Positions 1,435-25,629 of a DNA stretch of 25,851 nucleotides are shown one piece after another; within the stretch, counting starts at the first letter, position 1, and every line of letters starts with the position of its first letter. Under the pieces are notes generated by a model. The model searched no databases, was not told the DNA's origin, and was given only the letters and a program-made list of their open reading frames with translations. A program made the position numbers and the translations under genes. This DNA is from Candidatus Helarchaeota archaeon (lineage in GTDB: Archaea > Asgardarchaeota > Lokiarchaeia > Helarchaeales > RDOG01): contig JALGVI010000042.1 of NCBI GenBank assembly GCA_029838215.1, forward strand, positions 1 through 25,851, read 5' to 3'.

Positions 1435-2551
1435 TGTATTAGTTGCCGAAGATTCCTCTTTTCAAAGGAAAGTCATTTCTGAAATGCTCTCGAAGCATGA
1501 CCTCATTAGAGTTGTTGATGTTGCAAGAAATGGACTTGAAGCCGTAGAAAAAGTGAATCAGCTTCATCCCGACGTGCTTGTTTTGGATCTCATAATGCCA
1601 AAAATGGATGGCTTAACAGCGTTAAAAGAAATCATGAAAACCAATCCAATTCCTACCATAATATTCTCAGTTCTGGACCCGAAATCGCTTGATAATTCGG
1701 TTCAGGCTCTCATCATGGGTGCATTTGATTACATCATAAAACCGGGTGGCGTGTGGAAAGTCGAGTTACCTAAATTCAAGGATGAATTAATTTCAAAAGT
1801 CTTAATGGCGGCAAAATCTCAAGTCAAACAGGTTCACGGCTTGAAACGGGAAAGGAAGCAACAACAAGATAAAATAATTACAGAAAAAACAACAGGAAAT
1901 GGCAAGGTAAAAAAGTCCAAATCGGTTTCACTTCCCAAATTACCACCTGTCCGCATCAAAAATTTAAAAAACGGAATCATTGCAATGGGTGCCAGTGTTG
2001 GCGGACCGAGAACATTAAAAATCATTTTAAGTAAAATTCCAAGCGATTTCTCATCTCCAATCTTGATTGTTCAGCACATAAACCCTTATTTCGTTGATGA
2101 ATTTGCAAAGTCGTTGAGCAGAGAATGCAAGATAACAATTAAAGTTGCAGAGAATGAAGAATATTTGGTTCCCGGAATTGCATATATTTCTCCTGGTGAT
2201 TATCACGTGATAATTTCCGCCAAGAACGATAGACCTTGCATAAAACTCCTTCAAGGAGAGCCGGTTCATTTTTGCATGCCTTCCATTGATGTCCTATTTT
2301 CCTCCGTGGCATCGACATTTAAGACTAGAGCTCTTGGGATACTTCTAACGGGAATGGGAGAAGATGGTGTAATGGGTTTAGGGATGATTCAGCGAAGTGG
2401 AGGGAAGACAATTGCCGAATCTCAAGAAACGGCAGTTCTTTATGGCATGCCGAAATCTGCAGCCGAACGCGGCGTGGCAGATCTCATCCTGCCCAATTAT
2501 AAAATAAAGGAGGAAATGATCCTATTCTCCAAAAAGATCAGACGAAGTTAA
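1424..2551 (+). CDS. cheB: Chemotaxis response regulator protein-glutamate methylesterase CheB
   Basis: N-terminal receiver domain (VLVAEDS, DVLVLDLIMPKMDG, DYIIKP). The C-terminal methylesterase has the catalytic Ser (GASVGGP), His (IVQH) and Asp (LTGMGEDG), plus PSIDVLF and LYGMPKSA. Confidence 0.96.
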   Translation: MPINVLVAEDSSFQRKVISEMLSKHDLIRVVDVARNGLEAVEKVNQLHPDVLVLDLIMPKMDGLTALKEIMKTNPIPTIIFSVLDPKSLDNSVQALIMGAFDYIIKPGGVWKVELPKFKDELISKVLMAAKSQVKQVHGLKRERKQQQDKIITEKTTGNGKVKKSKSVSLPKLPPVRIKNLKNGIIAMGASVGGPRTLKIILSKIPSDFSSPILIVQHINPYFVDEFAKSLSRECKITIKVAENEEYLVPGIAYISPGDYHVIISAKNDRPCIKLLQGEPVHFCMPSIDVLFSSVASTFKTRALGILLTGMGEDGVMGLGMIQRSGGKTIAESQETAVLYGMPKSAAERGVADLILPNYKIKEEMILFSKKIRRS

Positions 2552-2556
2552 TAGCT

Positions 2557-3240
2557 TTGACAAGAACCGAAAAAAAATTTAAAAAATATAAGAATCGAGC
2601 CATTAATGCGGGATTTAGCTCTCACGTTCATCATCAAGACAAAAAGGTAATTCTTCCCATCGGTCATTGCATTTACATTAATTCAGATAGTGTATTTAAT
2701 GAAAAAGGCGTCAAGGAGATCGCAATCTATGGATTGGGATCTTGTATTGCTTTAATCCTAAGAGATCATGAAAACAAAATGAGCGGAATGTCCCATATTT
2801 TATTACCAAGCCATGAAAAACAAAGCGGAGCTATGATAAAATTTCCTCACAAATTTGCCGATCTCTCCGTAAAGGAATTGTTGGAGAAACTAATGCAGAT
2901 GGGTGCAGATAAAAATAAAATCAAGGCCATCATTATCGGCGGTGCGAATATTTTTAATAATCCAAACTTTGCAATCGGGACGGAAAACCTTAAGGTTGTC
3001 AGAAAAAAGTTGCAAGAATTGAATATCCGTATATTTCGAGAGATGGTCGGAGGAAATGTTGGTCGCGTGGTGGAATACGACCTGGATAAAAATGAAATTC
3101 GCGTTAGGAGATCGGGAACAAAAGAAGTCCAAATAATAAACTTGAATGAATCCTATCCCTGTAGAAATGTCAATAGAACGACCGTCCAGAATTTAGATAG
3201 ACCAGAAGTGCAGATAGGTGAAGTAGGTGATAGCAGATGA
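2557..3240 (+). CDS. cheD: Chemoreceptor glutamine deamidase CheD
   Basis: GLGSCIALILRD (catalytic Cys), GMSHILLP (His), KFADLSVKELLEKL, KAIIIGGANIF, IGTENL and EMVGGNVGRVV. Its stop overlaps the cheC ATG (ATGA at 3237-3240). Confidence 0.92.
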   Translation: MTRTEKKFKKYKNRAINAGFSSHVHHQDKKVILPIGHCIYINSDSVFNEKGVKEIAIYGLGSCIALILRDHENKMSGMSHILLPSHEKQSGAMIKFPHKFADLSVKELLEKLMQMGADKNKIKAIIIGGANIFNNPNFAIGTENLKVVRKKLQELNIRIFREMVGGNVGRVVEYDLDKNEIRVRRSGTKEVQIINLNESYPCRNVNRTTVQNLDRPEVQIGEVGDSR

Positions 3241-3923
3241 ATAAGAGTAGGAAGCGGGTGAAAAGCAACAGAGATAACTTAACGTTAACTCCCGAACAAT
3301 TAGATACTTTAATGGAACTCGGAAATATAGGAACGGGAAATGCAGTCACGGCTCTTTCAAAATTATTAAACAAAAAAATAGAAATGTCTTTGACCGATGT
3401 ATCCATCATTCCATTTTGGAAAATCTTAGAAGAGTTTGAAGGTCCGGAAACCCAAGTTTTTGGTATTTATTCAGATATAAACGGTTTTGCGAACCTATCA
3501 ATCCTGCAATTCTTCACGAAAAAATCCACCATAGAAATGATGAATAACCTGCTCCACAAAGATAGAATCATTTCTGAAAAGGTAACAAGTCTAAAGGATC
3601 TAGATGAATTCTCGATCAGCACGATCACGGAAATTGGCAATATATTAGCAGCACATTTTGCAAATTCTCTGGCAAGTTTAATGAAAACAGTCCTAATACC
3701 CGAAGTCCCAGTAGTGGCACTTGACATGATAGCCACGATATTAAATTCGCTTGTAGCAAAATATTCTTTTATCTCAGATTACTTGATAATTACAAAGACC
3801 AACATGAGTATTGAAGAATTTCATTTAGAAGGAAGCATTTGTTTCATCCCGGATTTGAAAACGTTGGAAACACTTTTCAAAGCCATAAACGTGGAATCAA
3901 ACCTAAATTCTAACTATAAATAA
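3237..3923 (+). CDS. cheC: CheY-P phosphatase CheC
   Basis: Two ExxN active-site motifs (LMELGNIGTGNAVTALSKLL; ITEIGNILAAHFANSL) and a P.V..DM motif (PEVPVVALDM). It is translationally coupled to cheD. Confidence 0.92.
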   Translation: MNKSRKRVKSNRDNLTLTPEQLDTLMELGNIGTGNAVTALSKLLNKKIEMSLTDVSIIPFWKILEEFEGPETQVFGIYSDINGFANLSILQFFTKKSTIEMMNNLLHKDRIISEKVTSLKDLDEFSISTITEIGNILAAHFANSLASLMKTVLIPEVPVVALDMIATILNSLVAKYSFISDYLIITKTNMSIEEFHLEGSICFIPDLKTLETLFKAINVESNLNSNYK

Positions 3924-3935
3924 AGGCGAGAATAT

Positions 3936-4943
3936 TTGAACACGGCAAATCCCAATTCCAATATAAAAGAATTGATTTCACACGAACATCTAAAGGAGTT
4001 ACTCGGAAATCTCCTAAGTTTACTTCCACATGTATTTGCTACTTTTATTGCAGATTTTGATGGTCTAATAATTGCACAGGCATCACGCAAGGATTTGGAT
4101 GAGAGCATCATTGGAGCCTTGACCGCTACAATTGATACGGCACTCAAAAGAATAAAAAGAATTGCAGACACATCTTTAGGGAGTGGCTCATTTGATATGG
4201 ATGAATACCGCCTGATATTTGTAGAACTCGGGGGACACACGCCAGCCATCTTCATAGTAGTGACGGACGTTTATTCTGACATTGATGATTACATTCTTTA
4301 TACATATTTGATAGCGGAAAAAGTATCGCTCATTTTAAATAACCGGAAAACATCGCTTTCAATACCCGAATTCATAATAGAAACAAAATTAGAGACAAAA
4401 ACAAATGGTCTCACGAGGAGAGGAAAAGATCTCATCATTAAGATAATGGTCTTGGGAGATACAAGGGTTGGAAAGAGTGCTCTCATAGAAATGTTCACGA
4501 ATGGTGAATTCCACGATAATTACATACCGACCGTTGGGATATCCATTGGTGAAAAAGAATTACAGATCTCAAAATCCATGAAACTCAAATTTCATTTTTT
4601 TGACATGTCTGGCTCTAAAAGCTTCGCAAAAGTCAGGAAAATGTGCTATAAAAATGCGGGTCTTGTATTCGTGATTTTCGATTTTACGAACATCAAGACA
4701 CTTGAAAATGCAAGGAAATGGATAAACGAATCGAGACAATTTCTTGGAAATCAAGACGTCAAGCACGTGCTCATCGGAAATAAGATAGATCTTGTTTCGG
4801 ATCGCGCGGTTATTCGGGAAAAAGCAAGAGAAATCGCCAATGAAAATGAATGTTTGTATTTTGAAGCATCTGCACAAACAGGTGAAGGCGTGGACGAAAT
4901 TTTCACGCTCTTGGCAACAGATATTCTCAACGAGAAAATATAA
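3936..4943 (+). CDS. Fusion of an N-terminal roadblock/LC7 (MglB-like) domain and a C-terminal Rab/Ras-like small GTPase
   Basis: Residues ~15-135 fit the roadblock pattern (FIADFDGLIIAQ..LDESIIGALTATI..LIFVELGG..AIFIVVTD). GTPase motifs are G1 GDTRVGKS (4455-4478), G2 YIPTVG, G3 DMSG (from 4602), G4 GNKID and G5 EASAQ. It starts 12 nt after the cheC stop with TTG. Confidence 0.88.
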   Translation: MNTANPNSNIKELISHEHLKELLGNLLSLLPHVFATFIADFDGLIIAQASRKDLDESIIGALTATIDTALKRIKRIADTSLGSGSFDMDEYRLIFVELGGHTPAIFIVVTDVYSDIDDYILYTYLIAEKVSLILNNRKTSLSIPEFIIETKLETKTNGLTRRGKDLIIKIMVLGDTRVGKSALIEMFTNGEFHDNYIPTVGISIGEKELQISKSMKLKFHFFDMSGSKSFAKVRKMCYKNAGLVFVIFDFTNIKTLENARKWINESRQFLGNQDVKHVLIGNKIDLVSDRAVIREKAREIANENECLYFEASAQTGEGVDEIFTLLATDILNEKI

Positions 4944-8050: not shown

Positions 8051-8449
8051 TTACGGCATCCCCTTTTTATTTAACAATGTAATGGCGTGATCAACTATTT
8101 TAATCACGTCATCAATAGAAATTGGCTTGCTAATGTAGTCGTATACTTCGGATCTGATGGACTCAATCAGGGTAGGCATGCTCGGGTAACCCGTGATTAC
8201 GATAATCAAAGCATTTTTGTTTTGTCCTTTAATGAGCTTAATCAATTCAAGCCCATTCCCACTTGGAAAGACCAAATCGATGAAGTATATGTCAAATTCA
8301 TCCTTTTCAACAATTTCTTTTGCCTTTTTAAAATCCGCCTCAGATCTTACGTAATATCCCTCTTTTTCAAGAATCCACGTAAGAGATTCACAAATGGATT
8401 TTTCGTCATCAACAATGAGAATCTTTACCATTTTTCTCACACCACTCAT
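8051..8449 (-). CDS. Stand-alone response regulator receiver (CheY-like) domain protein
   Basis: KILIVDDE, phosphoacceptor YFIDLVFPSGNG, ITGY and conserved Lys in YISKP. It has an ATGA overlap with the kinase stop (8446-8449). Confidence 0.93.
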   Translation of the reverse strand: MSGVRKMVKILIVDDEKSICESLTWILEKEGYYVRSEADFKKAKEIVEKDEFDIYFIDLVFPSGNGLELIKLIKGQNKNALIIVITGYPSMPTLIESIRSEVYDYISKPISIDDVIKIVDHAITLLNKKGMP

Positions 8450-11400
8450 AATTCTTCTTTGAATAATTTATTATTTTCATTTTTTAAAGGTAAAAATACC
8501 GAAACGGTGGTTGATTTCTTCCGTTTACTTTCAATGTTAATTTTTCCTGAATGTGCCCGAATTATTCCATACGAAATGCTTAATCCCAAACCCGTTCCGG
8601 GAATGCTTTTTCCTTTTTTAGTCGTAAAAAATGGATCAAACACCTTAGAAAGGTCTTTCTTTTTGATGCCAATCCCATTATCCGTGAAGGAAATTCGTAC
8701 ATATTTCGTATTCTTTTTCTTTGAAAGAGAAGCTTTAATCGTGATTTTTCGATCTTCTTCCAGCTTTTCATCAACGAACCTTTCATCGATTGCGTCTATC
8801 GAATTCTGCAAGATATTAATGAAAACCTGTTGAATTTCCTGAACTTTTAAAGGTATGAATGGAAGATCATCGGGAACGTCTAATGTGACTTCAATTTTCG
8901 ATTTCCTCAATTTTGGTTGTAAAAGCGATAGTGAAGCGTTTATTGGTTTCAAGATACTTTCTATTCTAAAAATTCCGGGATCACGTCGGGCGAAGGACAA
9001 TAAATCAGCCACGATTTTCGAGATGCGTTTTCCTTCTTCAATTATTTGCGTTAAGAAAGAAAAAGGTTTGACTTCCAAATCAAGCCTGCTCAATTCTTTT
9101 AATTCTTCTTTTACAATCTCGGCATAATTGATGATACCCATTAGAGGATTGTTTATTTCGTGTGCCACGCCTGCCGCAAGTAGTCCTATGGAAGCCAATT
9201 TTTCGGATTGCACCAACATTTCTTGCGTGTTTTTCAGTTCTAGAAGAGTATTTTCTAATTTTTTGGCTTCATTCTTTAGTTCTTTGGTTTTCAATTCAAC
9301 TTCTTTTTCGAGATCTTCCATGTAATTCTTTCGTGCTTCTTCAAGGGCTTTTCTTTCGGAAATGTCCCTTGCTAAATACAGACCTTTAATTTTCCCATCT
9401 TTATCCTTGAACTGTTTCCCTTTTATTTCTAGCCAAATGTAATGTCCATCCTTATGGCGGGCAAGGTATTCACGGGGTTCATCACCCATTTTTGCTAGAA
9501 ATTCGGATTGATTTCCAAATTTGATTCTGTTAATCTGTACAGGATGGATGAAATCGCCTCCGAATTTCCCAATTAGATCTTCACTTTTATATCCAAGAAT
9601 TTTGAGGTATATTTCTTCGTTGATATATTCATATCGTCCGTGCTCATCAAATATCGCAATTAAATCATTGGCATTTTCAGATATTAAACGATACTTTTCT
9701 TCGGATTGTCGTAGTTGTTCTTCAGCCATCTTACGAGATGTGATATCTTCAATCATGTGTTGTACATAATTTTTTTCGCCCAGTTTCAGGAGGGTACTTT
9801 GCACTTTAACCCAAACGGTATCGCCCGTTTTAAGTTTAAGCGAAAATTCAAAGGGATCAATTCTTGCACCCTGAACGATCGTTTCAAATCGATCTTTAAT
9901 ACGTGGGATCATGTTTTTGGGAAGCAATGAGATTGCATTCTCAAACGGCCCGATTATTTTTTCTTTTTTAACTCGGAAGATTTGTTCACACGCGCTATTC
10001 ATTTCTAAGATATTCTTGTTCCTATCGGTAATCACGATACCGAGCGTGGATTGTTCGAATAGATATCTATAACGTTCTTCCGATTCCTTGAGTTTTAGTT
10101 CGGCACGTTTTCGTTCTATCGCATTGACGAAAATATCTGCCACGTATTTAAGCAACAAGACATCCTTCTCGAGCCACTCCTTTTTTTCTCCAAAATCGCC
10201 CGAAAAAATCAAAGTTCCAAACAACGTCCCTTTGTGAACCATTGGAATTAACAACACGGGACGGAACCCATACTTTTTTAGCCAATCGTTAGCTCCTGTA
10301 GCGTCAGCAGGAACATCGGCAAGGCTTCGAATTATAATAAACGCTTGACTCCGCAACATCGTTGACAAATAAGGAAAGTCATCAATTTTTATTTCATTTA
10401 GAGGAATATAAGAAAGGTCATCTTCATTTACCATGTATTCATAACTTTTTATTCCAATTTCGGGGTTGTCTTTCGGAAAGGTAAGGATTGCACAATACTT
10501 GCTATTCAAATAGAGCGTCAGGACTTTTAAAGCATTATTTATTCCTTCATCGATTTCCTCGATTGGTAAATTAATGAATTCGGTTGAAACTCTCGATATG
10601 AACTCCTCTAAATCGAGTCGATATTTTAAAGCATCTTCTGCCTGTTTTTGGTCGGTGACATCAATGGCAATGAAGATGGCAGCAACAACATTCCCTTCCT
10701 GCTTGATTGGGGCTATGCTGTTAAGATACCAGCGTAATTCCCCATCGGCATTCTGGGATGCAGTTCGGAATCGGGCTTTTTCACCATTTTTAAATACAGA
10801 ATCTAATACACTTTTTACTTCTTCACGATATTTGGGCTCAATGTACGTGTAGATCTTCCTCCCCAAAAATTCTTCGGGTTTGACGCCGATTCTTTCAAAA
10901 CTTACTTCGGATCGATTTATTTGAAGGATGGTACCCTTCGAGTCTAGCGTGCATATCATTACGGGAGCATTTTCAACTAAAGATCTCCACCGCTCTTCCG
11001 ATGCTTGCAATGCTAATTCTGCTTGTTTTTGGTCGGTTATATCCATGAAAAAGGAGAATAACGAATCTTTTCCTTCAAATTGAATGATCTTGGAAAATAC
11101 ATTCACCCATTTATTAACATTAGATTTCGTAATCATGCGGTACGTGTATTGAATGGGAATCGTAGGATCTTTGAGAAACATCTTCTTGAGATTTTCCAAT
11201 GCAATCATTCGATCTTCGGGATGAATCAAATTTAGAAATGAATTTGCAGACCATTTTGATACATCTTCAAACGAGTACTCCGTGATTTGTTCCAATGCTT
11301 TATTTGCATACTTAACAATTCCATCTTGAATTATGGAAATTCCCATTATCGATTGTTCGGCGATCATGCGGAATTTTGCTTCCGATTCCCGTATTTTCTG

Positions 11401-14400
11401 CTGTGCGTTCATTTTTTCTGTGATATCTCTTGAAATAACGAGCAATTTAGTCTTGCCCGATTTATCCGTGAATGTTTTACCCTTAGATTCAATCCAAATG
11501 TAATATCCATCTTTATGTTTCACGCGGGATGATATCGTCAGATCACCAATTTCAAACACTTTTTGAAAACTAACTCTGATGTCTTCAACTTCACCAGGAT
11601 GAACCACGGATAATGCCGATTTTCCAAGCAAATCGACATCAAAATAGCCGAGAACTCGCTTGAAAGTTTCTTCATTTATATATTCAAACTCAAACTTATT
11701 GTTAAAAATGATTATCAAATCGTCAGCAGCCTCGGAGATGATTCGGTATTTCTCTTCAGATTCTGCCAATTTAAGTTCCGTCTTTTTTCTATCGGATATG
11801 TCTTGGAGAATGAATTGAAAGAATTTTTTTCCTGCAAAGTTCACCAAAGAGCCATTCGCATTTACCCAAACAAAGGCACCATCTTTTCTATTAACTGCAA
11901 ACTCGATGGGCTTTGATTTCTCTCCTTTAATGACACGCGAAATGTTCTCTTGTAATTTTTGTAATGTCTCTTTTGAAACCACCCCTATTTCGCGAAATAA
12001 TTTCCCAATTATTTGTTCTTTTTCTTGTCCAATTATTTTCTGCGCTGCAGGATTTAAATCCAAGATCTTGCCATTCATGTCCATGATTCCAATACCAGTA
12101 GGAGATTTTTCAAATAGAGCGTGGAATTTTTCTTCAGATTCTTGGAGTTTTTCTTCGGCGTGTTTTCGCTCAGTTATATCCAATAAAGTGCCATGAACGC
12201 CTACAAATCGCCCTTCTTTTCTGATGATGCTGTAAAAAGATTCCACCCAGCAAATTTTGCCAGATTTTGTTTTTACTCGAAATTCAAAAGGTGAAATGAT
12301 ACCCTTAAGCATTTTTTTCAAGTGCTTTATCCCTTTAGGAACGTCTTCTGGAACAATGAAATCAGATATCTTTTTTCCAATGACTTCAGAAGGTTTGTAT
12401 CCAAATATACGTTCTATCGCAGGACTAATATATGTAATGACTTGATTTTCATCATGCGAATAGATGATCTCGTGAAGATTCTCTACAAGCTCTCTATATT
12501 TTTCCTCAGATTCTTTTAATTCCCGTTCAGCTCGTTTTCTTTCCGTTATATCACGCACAATTGAAAGCACGAAAATTTTATCCTTGAGTTCAACGAGATG
12601 AGAATTTATTTCGACAGGTAATCGTGATCCATTTTTTAAAACATGTTCCATTTCGAACGTGTTCTCACCGTGAATCAGCAAATCTCCCATTATGTCTTGG
12701 ATTTTATCCATCATTTCGGGTGCATCAATATCACTAGGAGTCATTTTAAGAAATTCTTCTCTTGTATAACCATATCGCTTACAGGCTACATCATTAATTT
12801 CAACAAAAATTCCACGATTTCCATCATCTCGAAGTTCATGCACGAAAATGGCATCGTTTGCACTGTTGAATAGCGTTTTGAAACGTTCTTCGGATTCTTT
12901 TGTTCGTTGTTCTGCAGATTTACGCTCCGAAATGTCCCGCGAGATGAGTAGTGCTACCTTTTCATCTCCAGCACCTTCATATTGAATTCCTCTCACTTCA
13001 AACCAAAGATATTTTCCATTCTCATGACGAATACGAAGCTCAACCTTTCCGTGTCCAACCTCCAAACCTTTTCTAAAAGCTTCTACGGCGAAATGAAGGT
13101 CATCAGGATGAATGAAAGACGTGGCTTTGTTCTTTAATAATTTATCCATTGAATACCCCAAAAGCCGCACGTGAGCAGTATTCACGTATTTCAATCGAAA
13201 GTCAAGATCAATTAATGCAATTAAATCATTAGCATTTTCGGTTATTAGTCGATATTTTGTTTCTGATTCTTTTAATTCCTGCTCCGCCTTTTTTTGTTCT
13301 GTTATATCCGTCAATGAACCGTGCACGCCTATAACTTCACCATTTTTCAGTAATCTTCTGTTAATACTTTGCACCCAACGAACTTCATTGGAGCTTGTGT
13401 TCATCCTGAAATCAAAGGATTTCACCTTTCCTTCTTTAATTCTTTGAAATGTCTTTTCAGCCGTCGAAGAATCTGTGAGGTGAAGAAATTTCGTGAATGA
13501 TTTCCCGATTATCTCCGATGATTCATATCCCAATAATTTTTTGATGATGGGACTAACATACGTGATTTTTCCGTTTAAATCGCAAGAATATATGACTTCA
13601 TTCAGGTTTTCGATCAAGTCACGATACTTTTCTTCGCTTAATCGTAGAGCTTTTTCGGTTTTTGATCGTGCTAGGGCATTTCCAATTTGTAACCCAATCG
13701 TTTCGAGAGCAGTCCGAGCCGATAACGTAATGGTTTCAATTTCATGAGATGAAACGTTAAGAGCACCTATGATTTCATCTTCATGCAATAATGGAATGAT
13801 GGCAATCGCCCGTAATCCCTCTTCTATTTGTCTCTCATCCCTTTGGACCATGATTTTTTCATATTGAGTGTAAATAGGACGACCTTTTAACATGATTTTT
13901 GAATTTGGCGAATTTATTTCATAATGTGATACAGCAGCTACGAAAGCGGATGACAATCCAGCATGGTAGACGAGGTCAAGACATCCAGATATTTCGTCAA
14001 AAATATATACTCCGCCACAATCCATTCCCGATACCTTGAATGCGGCTTCGAGGCATAAACGGAATTTTTCATCAAGACTCTTTGCATTATCTAGTCGAAG
14101 TGCTAAATCTCGCTGTTCACGCATTAGGTCCTGTGCTTGTTTTCTTTCTGTTATGTCTAAGAAATTCAAAAAAATGGCTTGTCTCGTTTCATATTTTATG
14201 ATTTTGGAATAGATTTCTATCCATTTTACCTTTTTAGATTTAGTGATGATACGACAGAAATATGGTAAGTCAAGGTTGTCTTTTCCTTTTTCTCTTTCAC
14301 GCAACCGTTTTAATGTTTGGATTCGATCATCAGGATATACAAAATTGAGAATTTCTTTACTCGTTAGAGAAAGAATTTCCTCTCTTGAATATTCAAAAAT

Positions 14401-14598
14401 CTTGCTACAGGCTTCATTTACGTATTTTATCAAGCCATCTTGAAATATTAAAATTCCCATTATCGTCTGTTCCGTGATTGACGTGATTAAAAGTTGGGGA
14501 TCAACCGCCTGTTTTTCCATTACCATGTTTCGCCAGCCATCTTCTTCCCTTTTTTCCAATGGATTTAGCGTGCTAGCAATAATTTCACCCAATAACAT
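8446..14598 (-). CDS. Cytoplasmic multi-sensor histidine kinase: about 11 PAS/PAC and 2 GAF domains, then HisKA and HATPase_c
   Basis: Repeated SEE[KR][YF]R..E...DI[TS]ERKxAE units were counted by eye. GAF-like blocks are at SGMDCGGVYIFD..IAIIPLL..IGALNV and at YLNSKYCAIL..VLLIPMVHKGTLFGTL. H-box AAGVAHEINNPL, N-box QVFINILQNSIDA, DNGIGI, FDPFFTTK and GTGLGLSI are present. No transmembrane segment is evident. Confidence 0.95.
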   Translation of the reverse strand: MLLGEIIASTLNPLEKREEDGWRNMVMEKQAVDPQLLITSITEQTIMGILIFQDGLIKYVNEACSKIFEYSREEILSLTSKEILNFVYPDDRIQTLKRLREREKGKDNLDLPYFCRIITKSKKVKWIEIYSKIIKYETRQAIFLNFLDITERKQAQDLMREQRDLALRLDNAKSLDEKFRLCLEAAFKVSGMDCGGVYIFDEISGCLDLVYHAGLSSAFVAAVSHYEINSPNSKIMLKGRPIYTQYEKIMVQRDERQIEEGLRAIAIIPLLHEDEIIGALNVSSHEIETITLSARTALETIGLQIGNALARSKTEKALRLSEEKYRDLIENLNEVIYSCDLNGKITYVSPIIKKLLGYESSEIIGKSFTKFLHLTDSSTAEKTFQRIKEGKVKSFDFRMNTSSNEVRWVQSINRRLLKNGEVIGVHGSLTDITEQKKAEQELKESETKYRLITENANDLIALIDLDFRLKYVNTAHVRLLGYSMDKLLKNKATSFIHPDDLHFAVEAFRKGLEVGHGKVELRIRHENGKYLWFEVRGIQYEGAGDEKVALLISRDISERKSAEQRTKESEERFKTLFNSANDAIFVHELRDDGNRGIFVEINDVACKRYGYTREEFLKMTPSDIDAPEMMDKIQDIMGDLLIHGENTFEMEHVLKNGSRLPVEINSHLVELKDKIFVLSIVRDITERKRAERELKESEEKYRELVENLHEIIYSHDENQVITYISPAIERIFGYKPSEVIGKKISDFIVPEDVPKGIKHLKKMLKGIISPFEFRVKTKSGKICWVESFYSIIRKEGRFVGVHGTLLDITERKHAEEKLQESEEKFHALFEKSPTGIGIMDMNGKILDLNPAAQKIIGQEKEQIIGKLFREIGVVSKETLQKLQENISRVIKGEKSKPIEFAVNRKDGAFVWVNANGSLVNFAGKKFFQFILQDISDRKKTELKLAESEEKYRIISEAADDLIIIFNNKFEFEYINEETFKRVLGYFDVDLLGKSALSVVHPGEVEDIRVSFQKVFEIGDLTISSRVKHKDGYYIWIESKGKTFTDKSGKTKLLVISRDITEKMNAQQKIRESEAKFRMIAEQSIMGISIIQDGIVKYANKALEQITEYSFEDVSKWSANSFLNLIHPEDRMIALENLKKMFLKDPTIPIQYTYRMITKSNVNKWVNVFSKIIQFEGKDSLFSFFMDITDQKQAELALQASEERWRSLVENAPVMICTLDSKGTILQINRSEVSFERIGVKPEEFLGRKIYTYIEPKYREEVKSVLDSVFKNGEKARFRTASQNADGELRWYLNSIAPIKQEGNVVAAIFIAIDVTDQKQAEDALKYRLDLEEFISRVSTEFINLPIEEIDEGINNALKVLTLYLNSKYCAILTFPKDNPEIGIKSYEYMVNEDDLSYIPLNEIKIDDFPYLSTMLRSQAFIIIRSLADVPADATGANDWLKKYGFRPVLLIPMVHKGTLFGTLIFSGDFGEKKEWLEKDVLLLKYVADIFVNAIERKRAELKLKESEERYRYLFEQSTLGIVITDRNKNILEMNSACEQIFRVKKEKIIGPFENAISLLPKNMIPRIKDRFETIVQGARIDPFEFSLKLKTGDTVWVKVQSTLLKLGEKNYVQHMIEDITSRKMAEEQLRQSEEKYRLISENANDLIAIFDEHGRYEYINEEIYLKILGYKSEDLIGKFGGDFIHPVQINRIKFGNQSEFLAKMGDEPREYLARHKDGHYIWLEIKGKQFKDKDGKIKGLYLARDISERKALEEARKNYMEDLEKEVELKTKELKNEAKKLENTLLELKNTQEMLVQSEKLASIGLLAAGVAHEINNPLMGIINYAEIVKEELKELSRLDLEVKPFSFLTQIIEEGKRISKIVADLLSFARRDPGIFRIESILKPINASLSLLQPKLRKSKIEVTLDVPDDLPFIPLKVQEIQQVFINILQNSIDAIDERFVDEKLEEDRKITIKASLSKKKNTKYVRISFTDNGIGIKKKDLSKVFDPFFTTKKGKSIPGTGLGLSISYGIIRAHSGKINIESKRKKSTTVSVFLPLKNENNKLFKEEL

Positions 14599-14832: not shown

Positions 14833-15948
14833 TTATTGTTGCAATGCTGCCTTGATTGCTTTCATTGTTCGTGGTGGAAGGTCTTCTACGGCTTTTCCAG
14901 TTTCGTATTTGAATGCTTCGAGGATTCTACGACTTACAATGTCATAGTAGAAGTCATTTGGGATCTTTACGGGGCATACATTACCACATTTCCCACATGA
15001 TATGCACGCATCGCTCATGTGGACCATCTTAAGCATCCAATATAGCACGGGATCATCGAGTTCTTTTGCTTTTCTCTTTGCCTGAACATCACATACGGGA
15101 CAATAGCATAGAGGACAAGCATTAATACATGCACCGCACAGCCGACACTTCTTGATATCGGAGAAAAATTTGTTGAACCTCTCAGCATCGGTCATGTTTT
15201 CATATTCAGAAAAAACTTTTTCTGCAAATTCCCGTGCATTTGTTTCCAATTGTTCAAAATGAGCCTTCCGCTTTTCTTTCAGATCATCCGAACTTCCTTT
15301 TAGCCCGATCTTTTCAATGAAATTCTTACCTCGCTCCGATTTTATGGTTATTCGGGCTTTTCCATCTACAAGATCTAGAGTTAAATCAGCTATTCTAGGA
15401 AGTCGATTTGAACATCGTTGGCAGTTATCAAAGCGAGGAAGCTTGAGAACCTCTTTCTTGCCATCAATGGTTATCTCAAGCCCGTCATCGATTAGTTTCT
15501 CTTCGGTGATTTTTTCCGGGTCTAATTCCTTTGCTTTTAGCTGCTTGGTTGCATTTTGAGGACTCGTGGACCCGGGACATTCGATGCCGATAATAAACAA
15601 GTCGTCAACATTAACTTGGTGATACTTGGATAATTCAATGAATGCACGGATATCACAGGGACGAGCAATGAGTCCTGCTTTGGGGAATTTTGCTCGCATT
15701 GATTTTTGATAGAACTTTGAAGCAGAGTTCATTCGTGAATAATTATATGCAAAGTATTGACTTAAAGGGAGAGGATCAATAAGGTCTTTCGATTCTGTAA
15801 TGAGTTTTGGTAAAATTTCCATTCTCGTTTTTCTAATTTCGTAACCAAGGATGGCATCGACTTCCTTTTCTTCTAGTAACTTGACTAGAATCGTTCGGAC
15901 ATCTTTTGCATCCGTGATGAATGATTCTCCAATGTCCATCATTTTCAT
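14833..15948 (-). CDS. FdhB/FrhB-family iron-sulfur protein (formate dehydrogenase beta / FlxC-like), partner of HdrA-MvhD
   Basis: ARPCDIRAFIELSK..VNVDDLFIIGIECPG, FDNCQRC..RLPRIADL, and the ferredoxin motifs CRLCGACINACPLCYCPVC and HMSDACISCGKCGNVCP, as in methanogen FdhB. Confidence 0.8.
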   Translation of the reverse strand: MKMMDIGESFITDAKDVRTILVKLLEEKEVDAILGYEIRKTRMEILPKLITESKDLIDPLPLSQYFAYNYSRMNSASKFYQKSMRAKFPKAGLIARPCDIRAFIELSKYHQVNVDDLFIIGIECPGSTSPQNATKQLKAKELDPEKITEEKLIDDGLEITIDGKKEVLKLPRFDNCQRCSNRLPRIADLTLDLVDGKARITIKSERGKNFIEKIGLKGSSDDLKEKRKAHFEQLETNAREFAEKVFSEYENMTDAERFNKFFSDIKKCRLCGACINACPLCYCPVCDVQAKRKAKELDDPVLYWMLKMVHMSDACISCGKCGNVCPVKIPNDFYYDIVSRRILEAFKYETGKAVEDLPPRTMKAIKAALQQ

Positions 15949-16049
15949 CTCATCTATTTTTCAAGAATTCGAGGGTTCAATCTTCCTCTCATTTCTTTTT
16001 CATTAAATTTCTATTGCTTTTTTCCCAAGAAAGGGAAAGAAATTAAAAT

Positions 16050-16114
16050 CTGCCTCTCTTTGCAAGAGCTGTCCCTTCATGTGAGGCTTTACCATGAAGT
16101 TCATTCGACGGCAG
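16050..16114 (-). promoter_or_regulatory. Eukaryote-like SECIS element in the 3' UTR of mvhD
   Basis: mRNA sense reads CUGCC GUCGA AUGA A CUUCAUG GUAAAGCCUCA CAUGAAG G GA CAG CUCUU GCA AAGAG A GGCAG. This gives an AUGA...GA core, a perfect 7-bp helix, apical AAA, and a closing CUGCC/GGCAG helix. It begins 5 nt after the stop of a gene with in-frame UGAs. Confidence 0.85.
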
Positions 16115-16119
16115 GGCAA

Positions 16120-16542
16120 TTAGTTTGAGGCGTTTTTCTTCAATGGGTTAGGGCCTAATCTTGCGACAATTTCGGTCATTTCAGTAGCGATTTCTGCAAA
16201 CCTTGCGCCTTCTGCAGCACTAACGAAGTGCATTGCCAATCGATCCGGATCAATACCCATCATCTTGCAGATCTGCTTCATGTATTGAATGTTCCTTGAA
16301 GCCAAGAAATTTCCGGTTTCGAATTCGCAATCGCCTTCGTATCATCCCACAACAAGCACGCCATCGGCACCGTTTCTAAGTGCTCGCAGGACGAATTCGG
16401 GATCTACTCGAGCCGTGCACGGAACCATTATCGTGCGTAAACTGGCAGGGTATTGTCTCCGAATCGTACCAGCCATGTCACAGGCACCATAACCTCATTT
16501 CCAACACAAGAAAGCGGCAATTGTTGGTAACTCACTTGACAT
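16120..16542 (-). CDS. mvhD: Selenoprotein MvhD/VhuD (hydrogenase/Hdr [2Fe-2S] subunit), 140 aa with Sec16 and Sec67
   Basis: Read from the ATG at 16542: MSSELPTIAAFLCWK-U-GYGACDMAG..VPCTARVDPEFVLRALRNGADGVLVVG-U-YEGDCEFETGN..GIDPDRL..SAAEGARFA..LGPNP. In-frame TGA at 16495-16497 and 16342-16344 fall at conserved Cys positions. TAA stop at 16120. Confidence 0.93.
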
Positions 16543-16543
16543 T

Positions 16544-18562
16544 TTAACTCTTCACCACCGGAATCATTAACGTTCCATCAATTAAGGCTTCGAATGTATT
16601 GTTTCGATAATAGCGCAAGCTCATTGCGTTATTCTTGCATACACTCGGACAGGCTCCACACCCACGGCACTTGATTTCATCGACAACGGCATGTCCGTTC
16701 TCTATTGTAATGGCAGAGTAGGGGCATATTTGCACGCAAAGTTCACACGCACTGCATAGTTTGTAATCACAAACAGCTCTGACCAGTTCAATTTCATACT
16801 TGCCTTGTGACATCAATATTGAGGCGGCTTGTGCTGCACCCCGTCCTTGGTTCACGGAAGCATCAACCGCTTTTGGTCCTTGTGCAAATCCTGCGATAAA
16901 CACGCCTGGTGTCTTTGTATTAATCGGATTAAGACGGGCATGAAATTCCTTGAGATATCCGCTTGGACCGCGTTCCATTTTCATGATAGCGGCAATTTCA
17001 TCGGTTCCTTGAGAGGGATAGGGGGTCGTGCTCAAAACTACCAAGTCTGCTTCGTATTCGGAGACACCATCCTCGGTTTCCAGGTAACAAATGAGATTTT
17101 TTGTATCGGGATCTTCTTCGACCATTCCAACATTAGCACGAATGAAAGTAATGCCTTCGTTTCGCGCGCGAAGATAATATTCTTCGTAGTCTTTTCCCGG
17201 CGTGCGTATATCGCGATACGAAACAACGATTTCAGCGTCAGGATATTCGCTCAAGACAAGTTTTGCATTCTTGATCGTTACCAAGCAACAAACTCCTGAG
17301 CAGAATGCATATTCTCCTTCTTTTGTTGACCGAGCACCAACGCAATTGACCATCATTATTTTCTTAGGATGCTTTCCGTCGGATGGACGAACCAGATGTC
17401 CTTCGGTTGGCCCATTTGGATTAAGAATTCTTTCAAGTTGTATTTGATTTAGCACGTTATCGTAAATTCCAAGTCCGTATTGTGGCGTGACCTTGTTGTA
17501 GATGTTCCATCCCGTTGCAACAATGATGGTACCAACAGAGACCGTCTCAGTTTCCGGTTCTTGACTCATGTCAATCGCAGAAACTTCACACACTCGACTG
17601 CACGCATAGCAATGAACGCAGAAGTCCATGTCAATATTTGCCTTGGCAGGAACTGCTTGGGCAAAAGAGATGTCAATGCACTTTCGCGGGGAAAGCCCAT
17701 ATTGGAACTCATTTGGAAGAACGATGGGACAGACTTCAAAACAAGCTCCGCACCCGTTACAAGCATCCGTAACATACCACGGATTCTTTTGAACCGTGAT
17801 ATTAAAATTTCCAACGAAGCCCGATACGTCTTTTACTTCCGTATTTGTCCAAAGCGTGATGTTTGGATGCCGATTGACTTCAAGCATGACAGGACCCAAA
17901 ATTCAGATGCAACAATCATCTGTTGGAAATATCCTGTCCAATCTCGCCATGGTTCCACCGATTGTCAAATCCTTCTCAATGAGATATACGTGATATCCTT
18001 CATTAGCAAGATCCAACGCGGCAGAAATCCCTGCAATGCCACCACCAATGATGCAACACTCGTTCTTCACGTTTACGGTTCTCGTGGGAACTTTTTCCAA
18101 AAGGGCTGCACGATTGACAGCTCCGGAAATGAGTTCCATTGCTTTTTGTTGCGCAATATCGGGTTCTTTCATGTGCACGAATGATACGTGTTCTCGGATA
18201 TTTAAGAATTCAAGATTCCTCGGCGGCACGTCCGTTTCTTTTAGAACGGCATGGAAAACCGGTTGATGTGTTTTTGGCGTGCATGCACAGAGAACGACTT
18301 TATCAAGGTTTTCTTTTTCGACGTGTTCCTTGATAAAAGCCGCACCCGGTTCCGAGCAAAGTGCAACATTCTGGTCGGCATAATCAACATATGGTAGTCC
18401 TTTGGCATAAGTCACCAGTTCGTCAACGTTTAAAACGCCTGCAATGTTTTTACCTCAACGACAGATGAAAACCCCAATACGAGGTTCTTCATTCTGTTCG
18501 GTATCTGCTACATTTTTTTGTGCGATCACCATTCTTAATACTTCCAATGCAATATCTTTCAT
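16544..18562 (-). CDS. hdrA: Selenoprotein heterodisulfide reductase subunit A (FAD/Fe-S), 672 aa with Sec36 and Sec220
   Basis: One reading frame joins ORF-track pieces 17903..18415 and 16544..17899 to an upstream segment: RIGVFICR-U-GKNIAG (TGA 18455-18457), FAD motif IIGGGIAGISAAL, FPTDDCCI-U-ILGPVM (TGA 17903-17905), CNGCGACFEVCP, VNCVGARS, YAFCSGVCC and CSACELCVQICP. An AGGAG ribosome-binding site lies 5 nt before the ATG at 18562. Confidence 0.94.
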
Positions 18563-18567
18563 CTATT

Positions 18568-18572
18568 CTCCT
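18568..18572 (-). promoter_or_regulatory. Shine-Dalgarno-like AGGAG before hdrA
   Basis: The - strand reads GAAAGGAGAATAGATG, which supports the 18562 start. Confidence 0.55.
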
Positions 18573-18733
18573 TTCTGGTAATGCACCACCTAGAAAATGA
18601 ATTAAGATGTAAGTTTGGTATTCTGAAGGTTAAAGAAATTATTAAATCTTTGGGACAACTCGTTTCTGAAGAACGGAATCATGTTAAAAAAGCCGATTAA
18701 AATCGCTTGACATGCTCATTGATAATCATCCAT

Positions 18734-18747
18734 GAAAAATTTTTAAA
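18734..18747 (+). promoter_or_regulatory. Possible BRE/TATA element for gap in the divergent hdrA-gap spacer
   Basis: GAAAAAT-TTTTAAA lies about 70 nt upstream of the gap ATG. The region is AT-rich, so specificity is low. Confidence 0.3.
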
Positions 18748-18816
18748 CCAAATCGGTCATAGTGTAATCACCATTAAAAAAATCCAATCTAATGATTTAA
18801 ATGAGGGATTTATGAA

Positions 18817-19818
18817 ATGACAATAAAGATCGGTATTAATGGGTTCGGTAGAATTGGAAAATTAGTCTATCGAGCCATTATCGAACAAAAAGCAGATATT
18901 GAAGTCGTTGGCATTAACGATTTAACTGATACCAGAACATTGGCATGGCTATTCGAGAATGATTCTACTTTCGGCAAATTGTCTGTTAGCGTCGGTTATT
19001 CCGATTCTGCACTCATTATTGACGGAAAAGAAGTACCCGTGAGCTCCATCCGGAATCCTACGGAACTTCCTTGGTCAAAACTCGGAGCAAAAATCGTAGT
19101 TGAGAGCACGGGAATTTTCCGAAAGAGAGAACAGGCAGCTCAGCATTTGACCGCAGGTGCTCAGAAAGTGATCATCAGTGCCCCAAGCCCCGACCCCGAT
19201 TTCACCGTGGTCATGGGTGTTAATGATGACAAATTAACCGGGGAACATAAGATCATTTCTAACGCTTCCTGTACCACGAACAGTCTCGCACCCCCTGTAA
19301 AAGTGCTCAATGAAAAATTTGGAATTGAATCAGGTGTCATAACAACGGTACATAGCTATACGAACGATCAACGGATTCTCGATTTCATCCATAAAGACCT
19401 TCGCCGAGCGCGTGCCGCCGCAGTTAACATAATTCCCACGACAACCGGCGCAGCCGTTGCAGTTGGAAAGGTCATACCAGAATTAAATGGTAAATTAAAC
19501 GGCATTTCGTTAAGAGTTCCAACACCCGATGGTTCTGTTACAGATCTCGTTGCCAAACTAAAGACGGATGTCTCAAAGGAAGACATTAATGCCGCTTTAA
19601 AAGCTGCCGCAGAGGGTCCATTAAAAGGAATTATTCGATACACCGAAGACCCAATCGTTCTTAAAGACATCGTTGGCGATTCCCACTCTTCCATTATCGA
19701 TGGTGGCATGACCATGGTCATTGGTGGAAGTCTCATCAAAATTCTCTCATGGTATGATAACGAATGGGGATTTAGTAATAGAATGGTCGATCTAATCAAA
19801 AAGATTGATGCCCTCTAA
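18817..19818 (+). CDS. gap: Type I (bacterial/eukaryotic class) glyceraldehyde-3-phosphate dehydrogenase
   Basis: [33 protein letters not shown], catalytic [29 protein letters not shown] and [10 protein letters not shown]. Confidence 0.97.
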
Positions 19819-23217: not shown

Positions 23218-25629
23218 TTAAATGCGATGTGATTCCCGCGAAATTATTTCATCTTGAATTACTGCACCCAAAGTCACGAAGTATGCGTTATATCCCGTCA
23301 CGCGAACCAGCAGATTTCGATAATCTTCAGGGTGTTTCTTCGCTTCTCGCAGCATGTCCGCATTAATCATGTTAATCTGCAATGCCGTTCCTCCAACATC
23401 AACGTAGGTGCGTAGCAGGTCCTTGAATTTCTTTGCATGTTCTGCATCACGTAGGATTGCGGGATTGAATGAGATGGTATGGCTGGCGCCATTCGATGCC
23501 TTGTGCAAGCCCACTTTTCCAACGGATTTTATCACGCTCGTGGGTCCATTTTTATCGGCACCTGCAACGGGACATATTCCATTGCTCAGGAACATTCCGT
23601 GCTTTCGTCCATCGGGTGTTGCTACTTGTAGATTACCATAAGTGACCCAATAATTCCAGCTCAAATATCCTGCTCTATATTTTTTACCCGTGGGCGTTCG
23701 ATACTTCAAGACTTCACTCGTCCAGATGTCATTGACCAGTGCTGCCATCTCGTCCGCTTCATCACTATCACAACCAAATTTTGGTGCCTTGTTCAAGAGC
23801 CTCTGGCGAAGCGGTTCATTACCTTCATAATTCTTTTCAATTGCAGCAATCAACTCTTTCATTGAAACGGACTTTTCATCATAGATGAATTTCTTGACTG
23901 CGAGCAAGGAGTCAACAGCCGTGGCAAAACCAATGCCTTCGACCGTGATGAAATTATAAAGGGCGCCACCCTGCGTGATATCGCGTCCGCTCTCGGCACA
24001 ACCATCAACCAACATCGAAACGTATGGGGTGGGTTCAAAGTTAGCCCGAAGTTTATCGCCCAAGTTGTTTAAGTTGATTATGTAATTTACTAAAAACTTT
24101 ATTTGTTTTTTATATGCGTCAAGGAACTCGTCAAATGTCTGGAAGCGGAGAGGGTTTCCAGTTTTCAAGCCCCACTTCTTTCCAGTAAGTAGGTCCTTCC
24201 CGTTGAACAGGACAAATTCAATTGCCTTTGAAACGTTCAAATTCACGTCGACCGTTCCCGACCTGTCACACCCTTGTAGTGTATTTTCCAAGCATCCCAC
24301 AGGTGCGTAATCCCATAATTTATCCTTGGGTAGTCCTTGGAATTCCAGACCGCGAATGGAGTTTTCGTCAAAATTCAATAGAAATGGCGCACCCTGAGCC
24401 CTTGAAATCATGTCTACGATCTTGTCTAATAATTTTTCGGGAGTTTTTTTATGGAGACGAACGTTCGGTTTCGGTTCAAGCATGTTGATTTCATCGATCA
24501 CGTCAAGCATTAGATAGGTAAGGTCATTGGTAAGGTCTTCTCCGTTGGGTCCCAATCCCGATAATGTTATTAACTGACCGAACGCAGAAGTGATGCCTTG
24601 GTTCGAGCCGACCCGCGCTTGATAATCATATACATAATTGCATTTTATCCAAAAGCATTGCAATATTTCCTTCGCGAAATCTCTAGTTATTGCCTGTTTT
24701 TCGATATCCTTCTTGTAAAAAGGATAAAGATATTGATCGATTCGCCCAAAGGAAACACCCGGTCCGGGATATGATTCTGCGGACATTAATAAAGCATGAG
24801 TGAACCAGAGGCTTTGAACGGCTTCCCAAAAGGTTTCAGCGGGTTCCCACGGAACTCTTCGACAAATACGTGCCATTTCAAGGAGTTCTTTCTTTCTATC
24901 GGGATCCGTTTCATTAGCCGCAAGCTCTTCAGCCTTCGCCGCATAACGATATGCCCAATCCCTTGCAGTTTCTGCGCTGTGGATTAGAGCAATCAATAAG
25001 TTCTTTTTATCAACTTCATTCCGTGAACAACTTGCAAGCAACTCTTTGAAATATTTCGTGAGTTCCTTGAATCCTTCCTTTAGGACCTTTGGATAGTTTG
25101 GAATGAGATGTCCGGGGGTTGGACCACAATTCCCAATTGCCACGTCACTCATTGCCATCACGTTCTCAATGAACTTGTCTTGCATCTTCTTGTGTTTCTT
25201 TGCTTCTTTTTTATTCAGACACCTGGACAAAGCCGTATTAAAACGCCCACCTGCAATTAATTCTCCGTCTAATATGTCGATGTCTATATATTTTGTCATG
25301 ACTTCTTTTAAAAACAGGGACTTGCGAATGATTAGCGGCTGTTCCCAGAAATCCGTTGGTAAATCTACTTTCTTTGCACAAGCTAACAAGCCAATTAAAA
25401 AACTCCGAATGAACATGTGAATTTCTGGAGCAACAGTAAAGCCAGTAGGAACCCAAACCTGATCCCATGGTGTTCCCGTTGTATAAGGATCCACTTCATT
25501 TGTAAATTTCCCATTTTCAAAGCGTTCCTTAAAATTAAAATAATCGTCTCTAAGTTTTCTTATCCGGTTAGATAAATTCTCTGATGGTCCCCATACTTGA
25601 GACCTAAAATCACACGAATCTGATGCCAT
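23218..25629 (-). CDS. Glycyl radical enzyme, single-Cys (PflD/eliminase-like) class, substrate unknown
   Basis: Gly-radical loop LLVRVTGYNAYF (Gly779, 23293-23295) and active-site VGCLEN (Cys446, 24292-24294). Also present are SFGRIDQYLYPFY, PAETFWEAVQSLW, ATPDGRKHG and NGASHTISF. Confidence 0.92.
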   Translation of the reverse strand: MASDSCDFRSQVWGPSENLSNRIRKLRDDYFNFKERFENGKFTNEVDPYTTGTPWDQVWVPTGFTVAPEIHMFIRSFLIGLLACAKKVDLPTDFWEQPLIIRKSLFLKEVMTKYIDIDILDGELIAGGRFNTALSRCLNKKEAKKHKKMQDKFIENVMAMSDVAIGNCGPTPGHLIPNYPKVLKEGFKELTKYFKELLASCSRNEVDKKNLLIALIHSAETARDWAYRYAAKAEELAANETDPDRKKELLEMARICRRVPWEPAETFWEAVQSLWFTHALLMSAESYPGPGVSFGRIDQYLYPFYKKDIEKQAITRDFAKEILQCFWIKCNYVYDYQARVGSNQGITSAFGQLITLSGLGPNGEDLTNDLTYLMLDVIDEINMLEPKPNVRLHKKTPEKLLDKIVDMISRAQGAPFLLNFDENSIRGLEFQGLPKDKLWDYAPVGCLENTLQGCDRSGTVDVNLNVSKAIEFVLFNGKDLLTGKKWGLKTGNPLRFQTFDEFLDAYKKQIKFLVNYIINLNNLGDKLRANFEPTPYVSMLVDGCAESGRDITQGGALYNFITVEGIGFATAVDSLLAVKKFIYDEKSVSMKELIAAIEKNYEGNEPLRQRLLNKAPKFGCDSDEADEMAALVNDIWTSEVLKYRTPTGKKYRAGYLSWNYWVTYGNLQVATPDGRKHGMFLSNGICPVAGADKNGPTSVIKSVGKVGLHKASNGASHTISFNPAILRDAEHAKKFKDLLRTYVDVGGTALQINMINADMLREAKKHPEDYRNLLVRVTGYNAYFVTLGAVIQDEIISRESHRI

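Follow-up and report, generated by a model that had tools for sequence, protein, structure and literature searches.

The subject of this analysis is a pair of genes on the minus strand of a 25,851-nt stretch of DNA (the window; contig JALGVI010000042.1, positions 1 to 25,851, assembly GCA_029838215.1) from a Candidatus Helarchaeota archaeon. These genes, hdrA (16544–18562) and mvhD/vhuD (16120–16542), very probably form an operon in which two selenocysteines (Sec) are built into each product and all four UGA codons are served by a single shared selenocysteine insertion sequence (SECIS) element that works across the cistron boundary. The shared-SECIS arrangement is already known and ours is a rediscovery, because the identical model was published by Mariotti et al. 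(2016, Mol Biol Evol, PMC4989117). If four UGAs spread over 2.35 kb and two cistrons are recoded by one 3′ element, this would be the most extreme long-range Sec recoding known, a point that was made in 2016 and of which this locus is a further example, and such long-range shared recoding bears on the origin of the eukaryotic SECIS. What is added here is a contrast within one genome, where two paralogous Sec-hdrA genes end operons with their own SECIS, together with order-level variants that have two SECIS elements or none recognised, and quantitative support for a three-way junction in the element.

Under translation table 11, hdrA and mvhD are found only as pieces of 451, 170, 61 and 44 aa, as the initial annotation had noticed when it described both genes as split or missed by the open reading frame (ORF) track. 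When TGA is translated as Sec (U), hdrA runs without interruption from the ATG at 18562 to the TAA at 16546–16544 and mvhD from the ATG at 16542 to the TAA at 16122–16120, giving the full-length HdrA of 672 aa and MvhD of 140 aa that had been proposed, each including two Sec. Between the hdrA stop and the mvhD ATG there is a single base, A16543, in agreement with the 1-nt gap first reported. Standard gene callers break up or overlook both genes, and the Hdr/Mvh electron-bifurcation module would then be mis-scored as broken. The identity of the products is clear. MvhD matches Pfam FlpD (PF02662, E 1e-45) and the VhuD chain 9sfi_K in the PDB (E 1e-40). HdrA matches Pfam models for the flavin adenine dinucleotide (FAD)/Rossmann region and for two 4Fe-4S ferredoxin regions, and in a PDB search it aligned with solved HdrA chains at E 1e-199 to 1e-172, the best being 9sfi_A over residues 26–665. 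Its closest named relatives come from Candidatus Helarchaeota Hel_GB_A (60% identity) and Hel_GB_B (55%), and many metagenome-assembled genomes (MAGs) labelled "Promethearchaeota" (Lokiarchaeota) come next. The source organism is an Asgard archaeon of Lokiarchaeia, nearer to Helarchaeales than to Lokiarchaeum.

The four UGA codons almost certainly encode Sec. In hdrA they are codon 36 (U36, 18455–18457; motif FICRU-GKN, in an MvhD-like N-terminal domain) and codon 220 (U220, 17903–17905; DDCCIU-ILGP, the canonical HdrA Sec site), and in mvhD they are codon 16 (U16, 16495–16497; CWKU-GYGA) and codon 67 (U67, 16342–16344; VVGU-YEGDC, containing GUYEGDC), all on the minus strand. The initial annotation had placed the TGAs at 18455, 17903, 16495 and 16342 at Cys positions of conserved motifs. 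All of these motifs are present, and three of the TGAs align to X, the mark of a non-standard residue in the 9sfi chains of the Methanococcus Hdr–Vhu structure, and one aligns to Cys. The Cys column is that of U36 (FVCYCGANI in 9sfi_A); X stands opposite U220 (DDCAMXILAP in 9sfi_A), U16 (CYQXGYGA in 9sfi_K, with Cys in Cys-type MvhD chains) and U67 (VAGXKPNEC in 9sfi_K). Alignment with homologues, suggested as a check for Cys-containing orthologues, showed Cys or Sec at the four columns. U36 is an Asgard-typical extra Sec site, U16 and U67 are the two classical VhuD sites, and U220 lies beside the bifurcating FAD; the equivalent of U220, Sec197 of M. maripaludis HdrA, has been modelled in a Cys–Sec bridge between FAD and cluster A3 (PMC13518236, a structure paper of 2026). 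That HdrA and VhuD are selenoproteins in Methanococcales and in Lokiarchaeota, which had been taken as established, agrees with the X residues in the Methanococcus 9sfi chains and with Mariotti et al. (PMC4989117).

Within this genome, the U36 and U220 columns hold TGA in two further full-length hdrA paralogues and Cys at both sites in four others, and the U16 and U67 columns hold Cys at both sites in all 12 other mvhD copies. The UGAs therefore go beyond chance, since the same sites are TGA in two paralogues, while all other full-length copies of hdrA and mvhD have Cys there. Among 80 named Asgard loci, hdrA site 220 is TGA in every one and site 36 in 78; an adjacent Sec-mvhD is found in 75, and 74 of these have TGA at both site 16 and site 67, the 75th being truncated by the end of its contig. 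The 36/220 plus 16/67 pattern of our locus is the commonest one among them. The hdrA stop, TAA here, is TAA or TAG in 80/80, and its never being UGA fits the reasoning in the literature that UGA, if used as the stop, would be recoded too.

Other patterns and an odd label were met among the hdrA loci. The hdrA of L130 has five in-frame TGAs (aligned to 36, 94, 220, 321 and 407), that of L057 has four, and that of L116 has three, including one near residue 613. In one record labelled 'Candidatus Nanopelagicaceae bacterium' (L062, DATKTW010000168.1) there is a Sec-hdrA/Sec-mvhD pair of the typical Asgard kind, with a lokiSECIS; the record is probably mis-binned or mislabelled.

The genome also has the means to decode these codons. 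A search for the Sec machinery, likewise suggested in the initial annotation, was run and found tRNA-Sec, SelB/EFSec, SepSecS, a PSTK-like gene and a Sec-containing SelD (Sec-SelD) with one in-frame TGA; a genome search for SelA gave none. The tRNA-Sec (52.9 bits with Rfam) has a 9-bp acceptor stem and the anticodon UCA, which is immediately followed by a 25-nt insertion; ARAGORN misses this insertion-bearing tRNA and Rfam detects it. SelB/EFSec (282 bits) and SepSecS (498 bits) adjoin it in a row on contig C165 (46182–48994). By its gene content, this Sec system is of the archaeal/eukaryal type.

A eukaryote-like SECIS of the "lokiSECIS" class lies at 16114–16050 on the minus strand and starts 15 nt past the mvhD stop, in keeping with the claim that one clear SECIS follows mvhD about 2.3 kb from the first UGA; its AUGA is 2.35 kb downstream of UGA36. 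The kink-turn core consists of AUGA (16104–16101) and GA (16073–16072). Between them, hairpin A (16099–16075) has a 7-bp stem, CUUCAUG/CAUGAAG (16099–16093 with 16081–16075), and an 11-nt loop, GUAAAGCCUCA. One A separates AUGA from the stem and one G separates the stem from GA, and counting this A·G there are eight stem positions; such an upper stem is within the 7–15 bp range of Huang, Xiao and Zhang (2024, ISME J, PMC11227280) and one pair short of the fixed 9 bp of Mariotti et al. The paralogous SECIS elements at C144 and C111 have 9-bp stems. The apical loop starts with GUAAA and ends in A; the C144 loop differs from it by one base and shares this terminal A. In an alignment of 26 sequences the terminal G of the loop is conserved to at least 90% and is not invariant.

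These 26 sequences are elements of relatives, mostly of another family, and were used to build a covariance model, R1, from which the window element was left out. They derive from a sample of 30 Sec-mvhD loci of related genomes. In 29 of the 30, hdrA is directly upstream of mvhD, and in 27 an element with AUGA, a 9-bp stem, an 11-nt A-rich loop and GA is found near the mvhD stop, at −4 to +21 nt relative to it. In the R1 alignment, 93% of stem cells are paired versus 54% in shuffles; the R1 sequences had been picked by their pairing pattern, hence the independent evidence is the position of the element and not its pairing. On both strands of the whole 25.9-kb window, the top match of R1 is 16110–16066. 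R1 gives 28.9 bits to the orthologous element of L017, a locus of the same family with identical helix I and hairpin B (see below) and a different hairpin A stem, and 23.8 and 17.4 bits to the elements behind the two paralogous Sec-hdrA genes. Rfam, searched at E up to 10 over 15000–19500, returned no SECIS family and has no model for the lokiSECIS class. An R1 run on the whole genome scored 150 of 8156 candidates and is no census; a candidate match at C159:7977 (19.6 bits) was dropped as it had no convincing Sec ORF.

Beyond the canonical core, the SECIS of this operon is modelled as a three-way junction that joins the kink-turn hairpin, a small hairpin with a GCA loop and a closing helix of 5 bp. 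The closing helix, helix I, pairs CUGCC (16114–16110), just 5′ of AUGA, with GGCAG (16054–16050), and the side hairpin, hairpin B (16068–16056, CUCUU-GCA-AAGAG), stands 3′ of GA. The proposed junction fold has −18.3 kcal/mol versus −18.6 kcal/mol for the minimum free energy (MFE) structure, the kink-turn pairs being uncounted. Hairpin B and helix I were unused in selecting elements, and the junction was seen in 31 of 31 of them, against 5.2 on average and 11 at most when the flanks were shuffled. In further elements from named MAGs it was seen in 58 of 59 (shuffles: mean 10.8, maximum 19), and the hairpin-B loop contains GC in 57 of these 58. The helix sequences vary among elements (CUGCC/GGCAG, CCGA/UCGG, UGUGUU/AACACA, AGUCAAGC/GUUUGACU and others). 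About 17% of decoy hairpins in the genome also pass the junction test. MAFFT misaligned extended elements of different sequence classes, and for this reason a per-sequence descriptor with shuffle controls was used instead of a three-helix covariance model. The running texts of Mariotti et al. (2016) and Huang et al. (2024), as distinct from their figures and supplements, make no mention of a side hairpin or junction, and a full-text literature search found no paper that combines SECIS, Asgard and "three-way junction".

The hypothesis that the functional Asgard hdrA/vhuD SECIS is a k-junction, with its kink held by the GC(A)-loop hairpin and the closing helix, and that this could enable cross-cistron recoding over 2.35 kb, is put forward only tentatively, and we regard it as rather improbable as it stands. 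Docking of a SECIS-binding factor is one example of how such a k-junction could act. The Helarchaeales-like order offers natural variants for this idea, with a shared SECIS, with two SECIS elements, or with a remnant that lacks the apical hairpin.

Because the spacer is one base, a second SECIS would have to lie within coding sequence or upstream. Between 18820 and 15950, R1 gave no credible match besides the post-mvhD element, and with a junction-level descriptor (junction of at least 9 bp) this same element was the sole match on the operon mRNA strand. The strict descriptor has 39 matches in the 3.6-Mb genome; earlier and looser ones had 272 and 459, and only the stricter cut-off is informative. 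The earlier statement that there is no room for an hdrA-specific 3′ untranslated region (3′ UTR) is thus borne out by the 1-nt spacer, and no conserved second SECIS was found in the operon.

Gene order differs among the Sec-hdrA loci of this genome, and the position of the SECIS follows the last Sec gene. Two di-Sec hdrA paralogues with TGA at both hdrA sites, one on C144 (hdrA 10301–12247 in a locus of 10301–12339) and one on C12 (hdrA 28228–26252 in a locus of 28228–26201), have the order mvhD(Cys) then hdrA(Sec), with their own lokiSECIS right after hdrA; in the C12 element the AUGA core even includes the UGA stop of hdrA. In all three Sec-hdrA loci the SECIS stands behind whichever Sec gene comes last, at its 3′ end. 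Loci of order-level relatives provide further arrangements. In Hel_GB_B-type loci (L034/L053 and, from a second genome, L040/L052), one SECIS comes right after hdrA (R1 23.5–25.5 bits, E 0.002–0.009), complete with side hairpin and closing helix, and a second one comes after mvhD (R1 42–45 bits); positions are L053:2152–2199, L053:2664–2710, L034:1405–1452, L040:1960–2006 (minus) and L052:4997–5043. The hdrA–mvhD spacer of these loci is 117 nt, or an extra gene stands between. Hel_GB_A-type loci (L051, L018, L019) keep all four TGAs, and after mvhD (L051:5395–5450, likewise in L018 and L019) they have AUGA-AGG-GA without an apical hairpin, followed by a side hairpin with a GCAA loop; in the parts of these loci that were searched, neither R1 nor pattern scans found a SECIS.

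According to the model, one mRNA would run from upstream of hdrA to at least 16050. Ribosomes would decode UGA36 and UGA220 of hdrA as Sec, terminate at UAA and restart 1 nt on at the mvhD AUG, which has a Shine-Dalgarno-like site of its own (GGUGGUGA, 16552–16559, minus strand) within the end of hdrA and 9 nt before the AUG; translation of mvhD may be coupled to that of hdrA through this site. UGA16 and UGA67 of mvhD would then be decoded as Sec before termination at UAA. Sec-tRNA(Sec) would be made by the PSTK/SepSecS route with selenophosphate from SelD and delivered by the archaeal SelB/EFSec, directed by the single eukaryote-like kink-turn SECIS, which would act on UGAs about 0.24, 0.39, 1.80 and 2.35 kb upstream and across the cistron boundary.

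Several points weigh against this model. The AUGA-to-GA spacing of the element is 27 nt rather than the usual 29, with seven Watson–Crick pairs plus A·G; its R1 score is weak (13.8 bits, E 0.7); and the unconstrained MFE fold of the 3′ region is not the SECIS fold and no better than shuffles (z −1.0), in an energy model from which kink-turn pairs are absent. The PSTK-like gene scores 160 bits, below the NCBIfam cut-off of 290, and the assembly is a MAG with 94% completeness and 6% contamination. A hairpin internal to hdrA (17589–17547, minus strand) has GUGA, a perfect 8-bp stem, a 5-bp ministem with an AUGA loop, and GA. SECIS sharing is not obligatory, as the Hel_GB_B-type relatives have a separate hdrA SECIS. 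Moreover, Sec insertion, the bicistronic transcript and SECIS function in Asgard archaea rest on inference from sequence.

Comparison with known systems places the locus close to published ones. Mariotti et al. (PMC4989117) described tandem HdrA–VhuD pairs of Lokiarchaeota with very short spacers and multi-Sec HdrA, in which a lone lokiSECIS after VhuD, on an inferred polycistronic mRNA, would serve up to six UGAs over about 2 kb. Our locus resembles these pairs in its gene order and strand, with hdrA ahead of vhuD and a very short gap between the two, and in having a multi-Sec hdrA with a UAA/UAG stop and a two-Sec VhuD, and a single AUGA…GA SECIS with an 11-nt apical loop after vhuD. It differs from the lokiSECIS of that study in the spacer of just 1 nt, the 27-nt AUGA–GA distance, the stem of seven Watson–Crick pairs plus A·G, the loop start GUAAA instead of AAAAA, and the last loop base, A instead of the 'ultraconserved' G. 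Huang et al. (PMC11227280) surveyed 227 Sec-using Asgard genomes and described the hdrA–frhD cluster and shared elements; by their account 'almost all' hdrA/frhD neighbours share one element, and a G[U/G]AAA loop start is a known variant. Our element fits their type I eSECIS-like model (core GA_GA, stem of 7–15 bp with at most 2 mismatches, loop of 8–20 nt, terminal G not required). However, their text confines itself to core, stem and loop and gives no conserved nucleotides of a lower stem or internal loop, whereas a closing helix and a side hairpin are present here.

In Methanococcales and Methanopyrus, the homologous HdrA (Sec197) and VhuD (9sfi/9t1s, PMC13518236) share three of the four Sec positions, and there too a SECIS in the 3′ region acts at a distance and one VhuD SECIS serves two UGAs. 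The HdrA of Methanococcales, however, has one Sec and each gene is described as having its own SECIS of the GAA_A type, in contrast to the extra U36 and the probably shared kink-turn SECIS of this locus. Hel_GB_B-type loci have the same sites (36/220 and 16/67), the same SECIS type with a three-way junction and, in L034/L053, a similar gene after mvhD; they differ by two SECIS elements and a 117-nt spacer or intervening gene, against one SECIS and 1 nt in our locus. Eukaryotic SelP offers a more distant parallel, with an AUGA/GA kink-turn core and an A-rich apical loop that serve several far-off UGAs from the 3′ side. SelP is monocistronic, has two SECIS elements and requires SBP2, a protein not known from Asgard archaea (PMC4989117), whereas the element here has a side hairpin and would act across a cistron boundary.

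The proposal of the initial annotation that one 3′ UTR SECIS recodes four UGAs over two cistrons is supported, and all its computational predictions hold. Sharing is supported by the sites, the machinery and the lone element; location in a true 3′ UTR is uncertain, as no T5 terminator-like tract is met until past the frhB-like gene that follows mvhD. Upstream, a TATA-like motif (TTTAATAA, 18639–18646, minus strand), found by motif search about 84 nt before the hdrA ATG, is a candidate operon promoter. Downstream, a U-rich tract with U4 then U3 runs (16027–16048, minus strand) directly follows the SECIS and is possibly a weak archaeal terminator; runs of five or more T are absent both from 18562–16120 and from this tract. 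The frhB-like gene (14833–15948, minus strand) starts 171 nt after mvhD and encodes an F420-binding FrhB/FdhB C-terminal domain (Pfam PF04432) and two 4Fe-4S motifs. The transcript may continue through this gene (15948–14833) to make a three-gene operon, with the SECIS then intercistronic; we take this layout to be possible, though on balance doubtful. It draws on the strong T5/T5/T4 tract at 14826–14804 after the frhB-like gene, in contrast to the U4 and U3 runs just past the SECIS, and on a similar ORF start downstream of mvhD in the order-level relatives L017, L018 and L034. On the other side, a TATA-like motif (AAATTTAA at 16010, 62 nt before the frhB-like ATG) would suit separate transcription and the U-rich tract past helix I could end the upstream transcript, neither being decisive. 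An intercistronic SECIS would alter the transcript map and not the recoding model.

Far less probable is the alternative that hdrA has its own cryptic intragenic SECIS, the hairpin at 17589–17547, and that the post-mvhD element serves mvhD alone. In formal terms this hairpin falls within the loose type II eSECIS-like model that Huang et al. gave (core GA_GA, stem of 7–15 bp, ministem of 2–8 bp, loop of 2–6 nt), is stable (−19.3 kcal/mol for the surrounding 61-nt stretch) and lies downstream of both hdrA UGAs; the Hel_GB_B-type relatives show that a SECIS specific to hdrA can exist. However, it is kept in none of seven orthologues, including that of L017 with 65% identity, it lacks the closing helix and side hairpin of genuine elements (31/31 and 58/59), and R1 gives it no score. 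In this window, relaxed matches as good as it are expected by chance at about 0.5 per 2.9 kb. A second NUGA/GA-flanked hairpin from the relaxed scan (16535–16495), expected at 2.1 per 2.9 kb, was rejected together with it as a hidden SECIS, neither being conserved in the seven orthologues examined. To our knowledge, no archaeal SECIS element has been described within coding sequence, and this also counts against an intragenic one. With both relaxed hairpins unconserved and at chance level, we consider a hidden hdrA SECIS very unlikely and retain sharing of the post-mvhD element.

It is less likely still, and extremely so, that the TGAs really end translation, that they are errors of sequencing or assembly, or that they betray a pair of decaying pseudogenes. 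The splitting of both genes under table 11 and the 6% contamination of the MAG would suit such an origin. However, all four TGAs fall exactly at Cys/Sec columns, the frames remain open and conserved past each of them, the same TGAs recur in two paralogues and in the independent MAG loci counted above (80 of 80 for site 220, 78 for site 36, 74/75 for mvhD sites 16 and 67), and a complete Sec machinery is encoded in the genome along with a SECIS.

Genome-wide reassignment of TGA, for example to Trp or Gly and with no need for SECIS-dependent recoding, is negligible as an explanation, although both frames do open when all TGAs are read through: TGA is an ordinary stop in 5 of the 19 long ORFs of the window, which argues against such reassignment, the homologous residue is Cys or Sec and not Trp or Gly, and a dedicated tRNA-Sec and EFSec are present.

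Other short Sec ORFs with a SECIS were noticed in this genome. One of 146 aa (C111:41413–41888; L046:1914–2389) has the motif GCUU with two adjacent TGAs and no Pfam match, and ends in the AUGA of a lokiSECIS (R1 24.9 bits). An IscA/HesB-like Sec ORF (C157:39501–39966; L132:1802–2267) has the motif HRGUSG and a three-way-junction SECIS, with a match to PF01521 (E 3e-4) that is below the cut-off. A VhuU/FrhA-like C-terminal peptide with YDCULSCAAH (C49:15672–15865; L131:2073–2266) also has a three-way-junction SECIS.

The gene content of the rest of the window, which comprises a KaiC-like ATPase and the genes that follow here, fits an Asgard archaeon. On the plus strand, cheR-cheB-cheD-cheC (466–3923) are followed by a Ras/Roc-family small GTPase with an N-terminal extension of about 165 aa (3936–4943). 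The minus strand encodes a histidine kinase of 2050 aa with about ten PAS domains and a GAF domain (8446–14598) and a glycyl-radical (PFL-like) enzyme of 803 aa (23218–25629).

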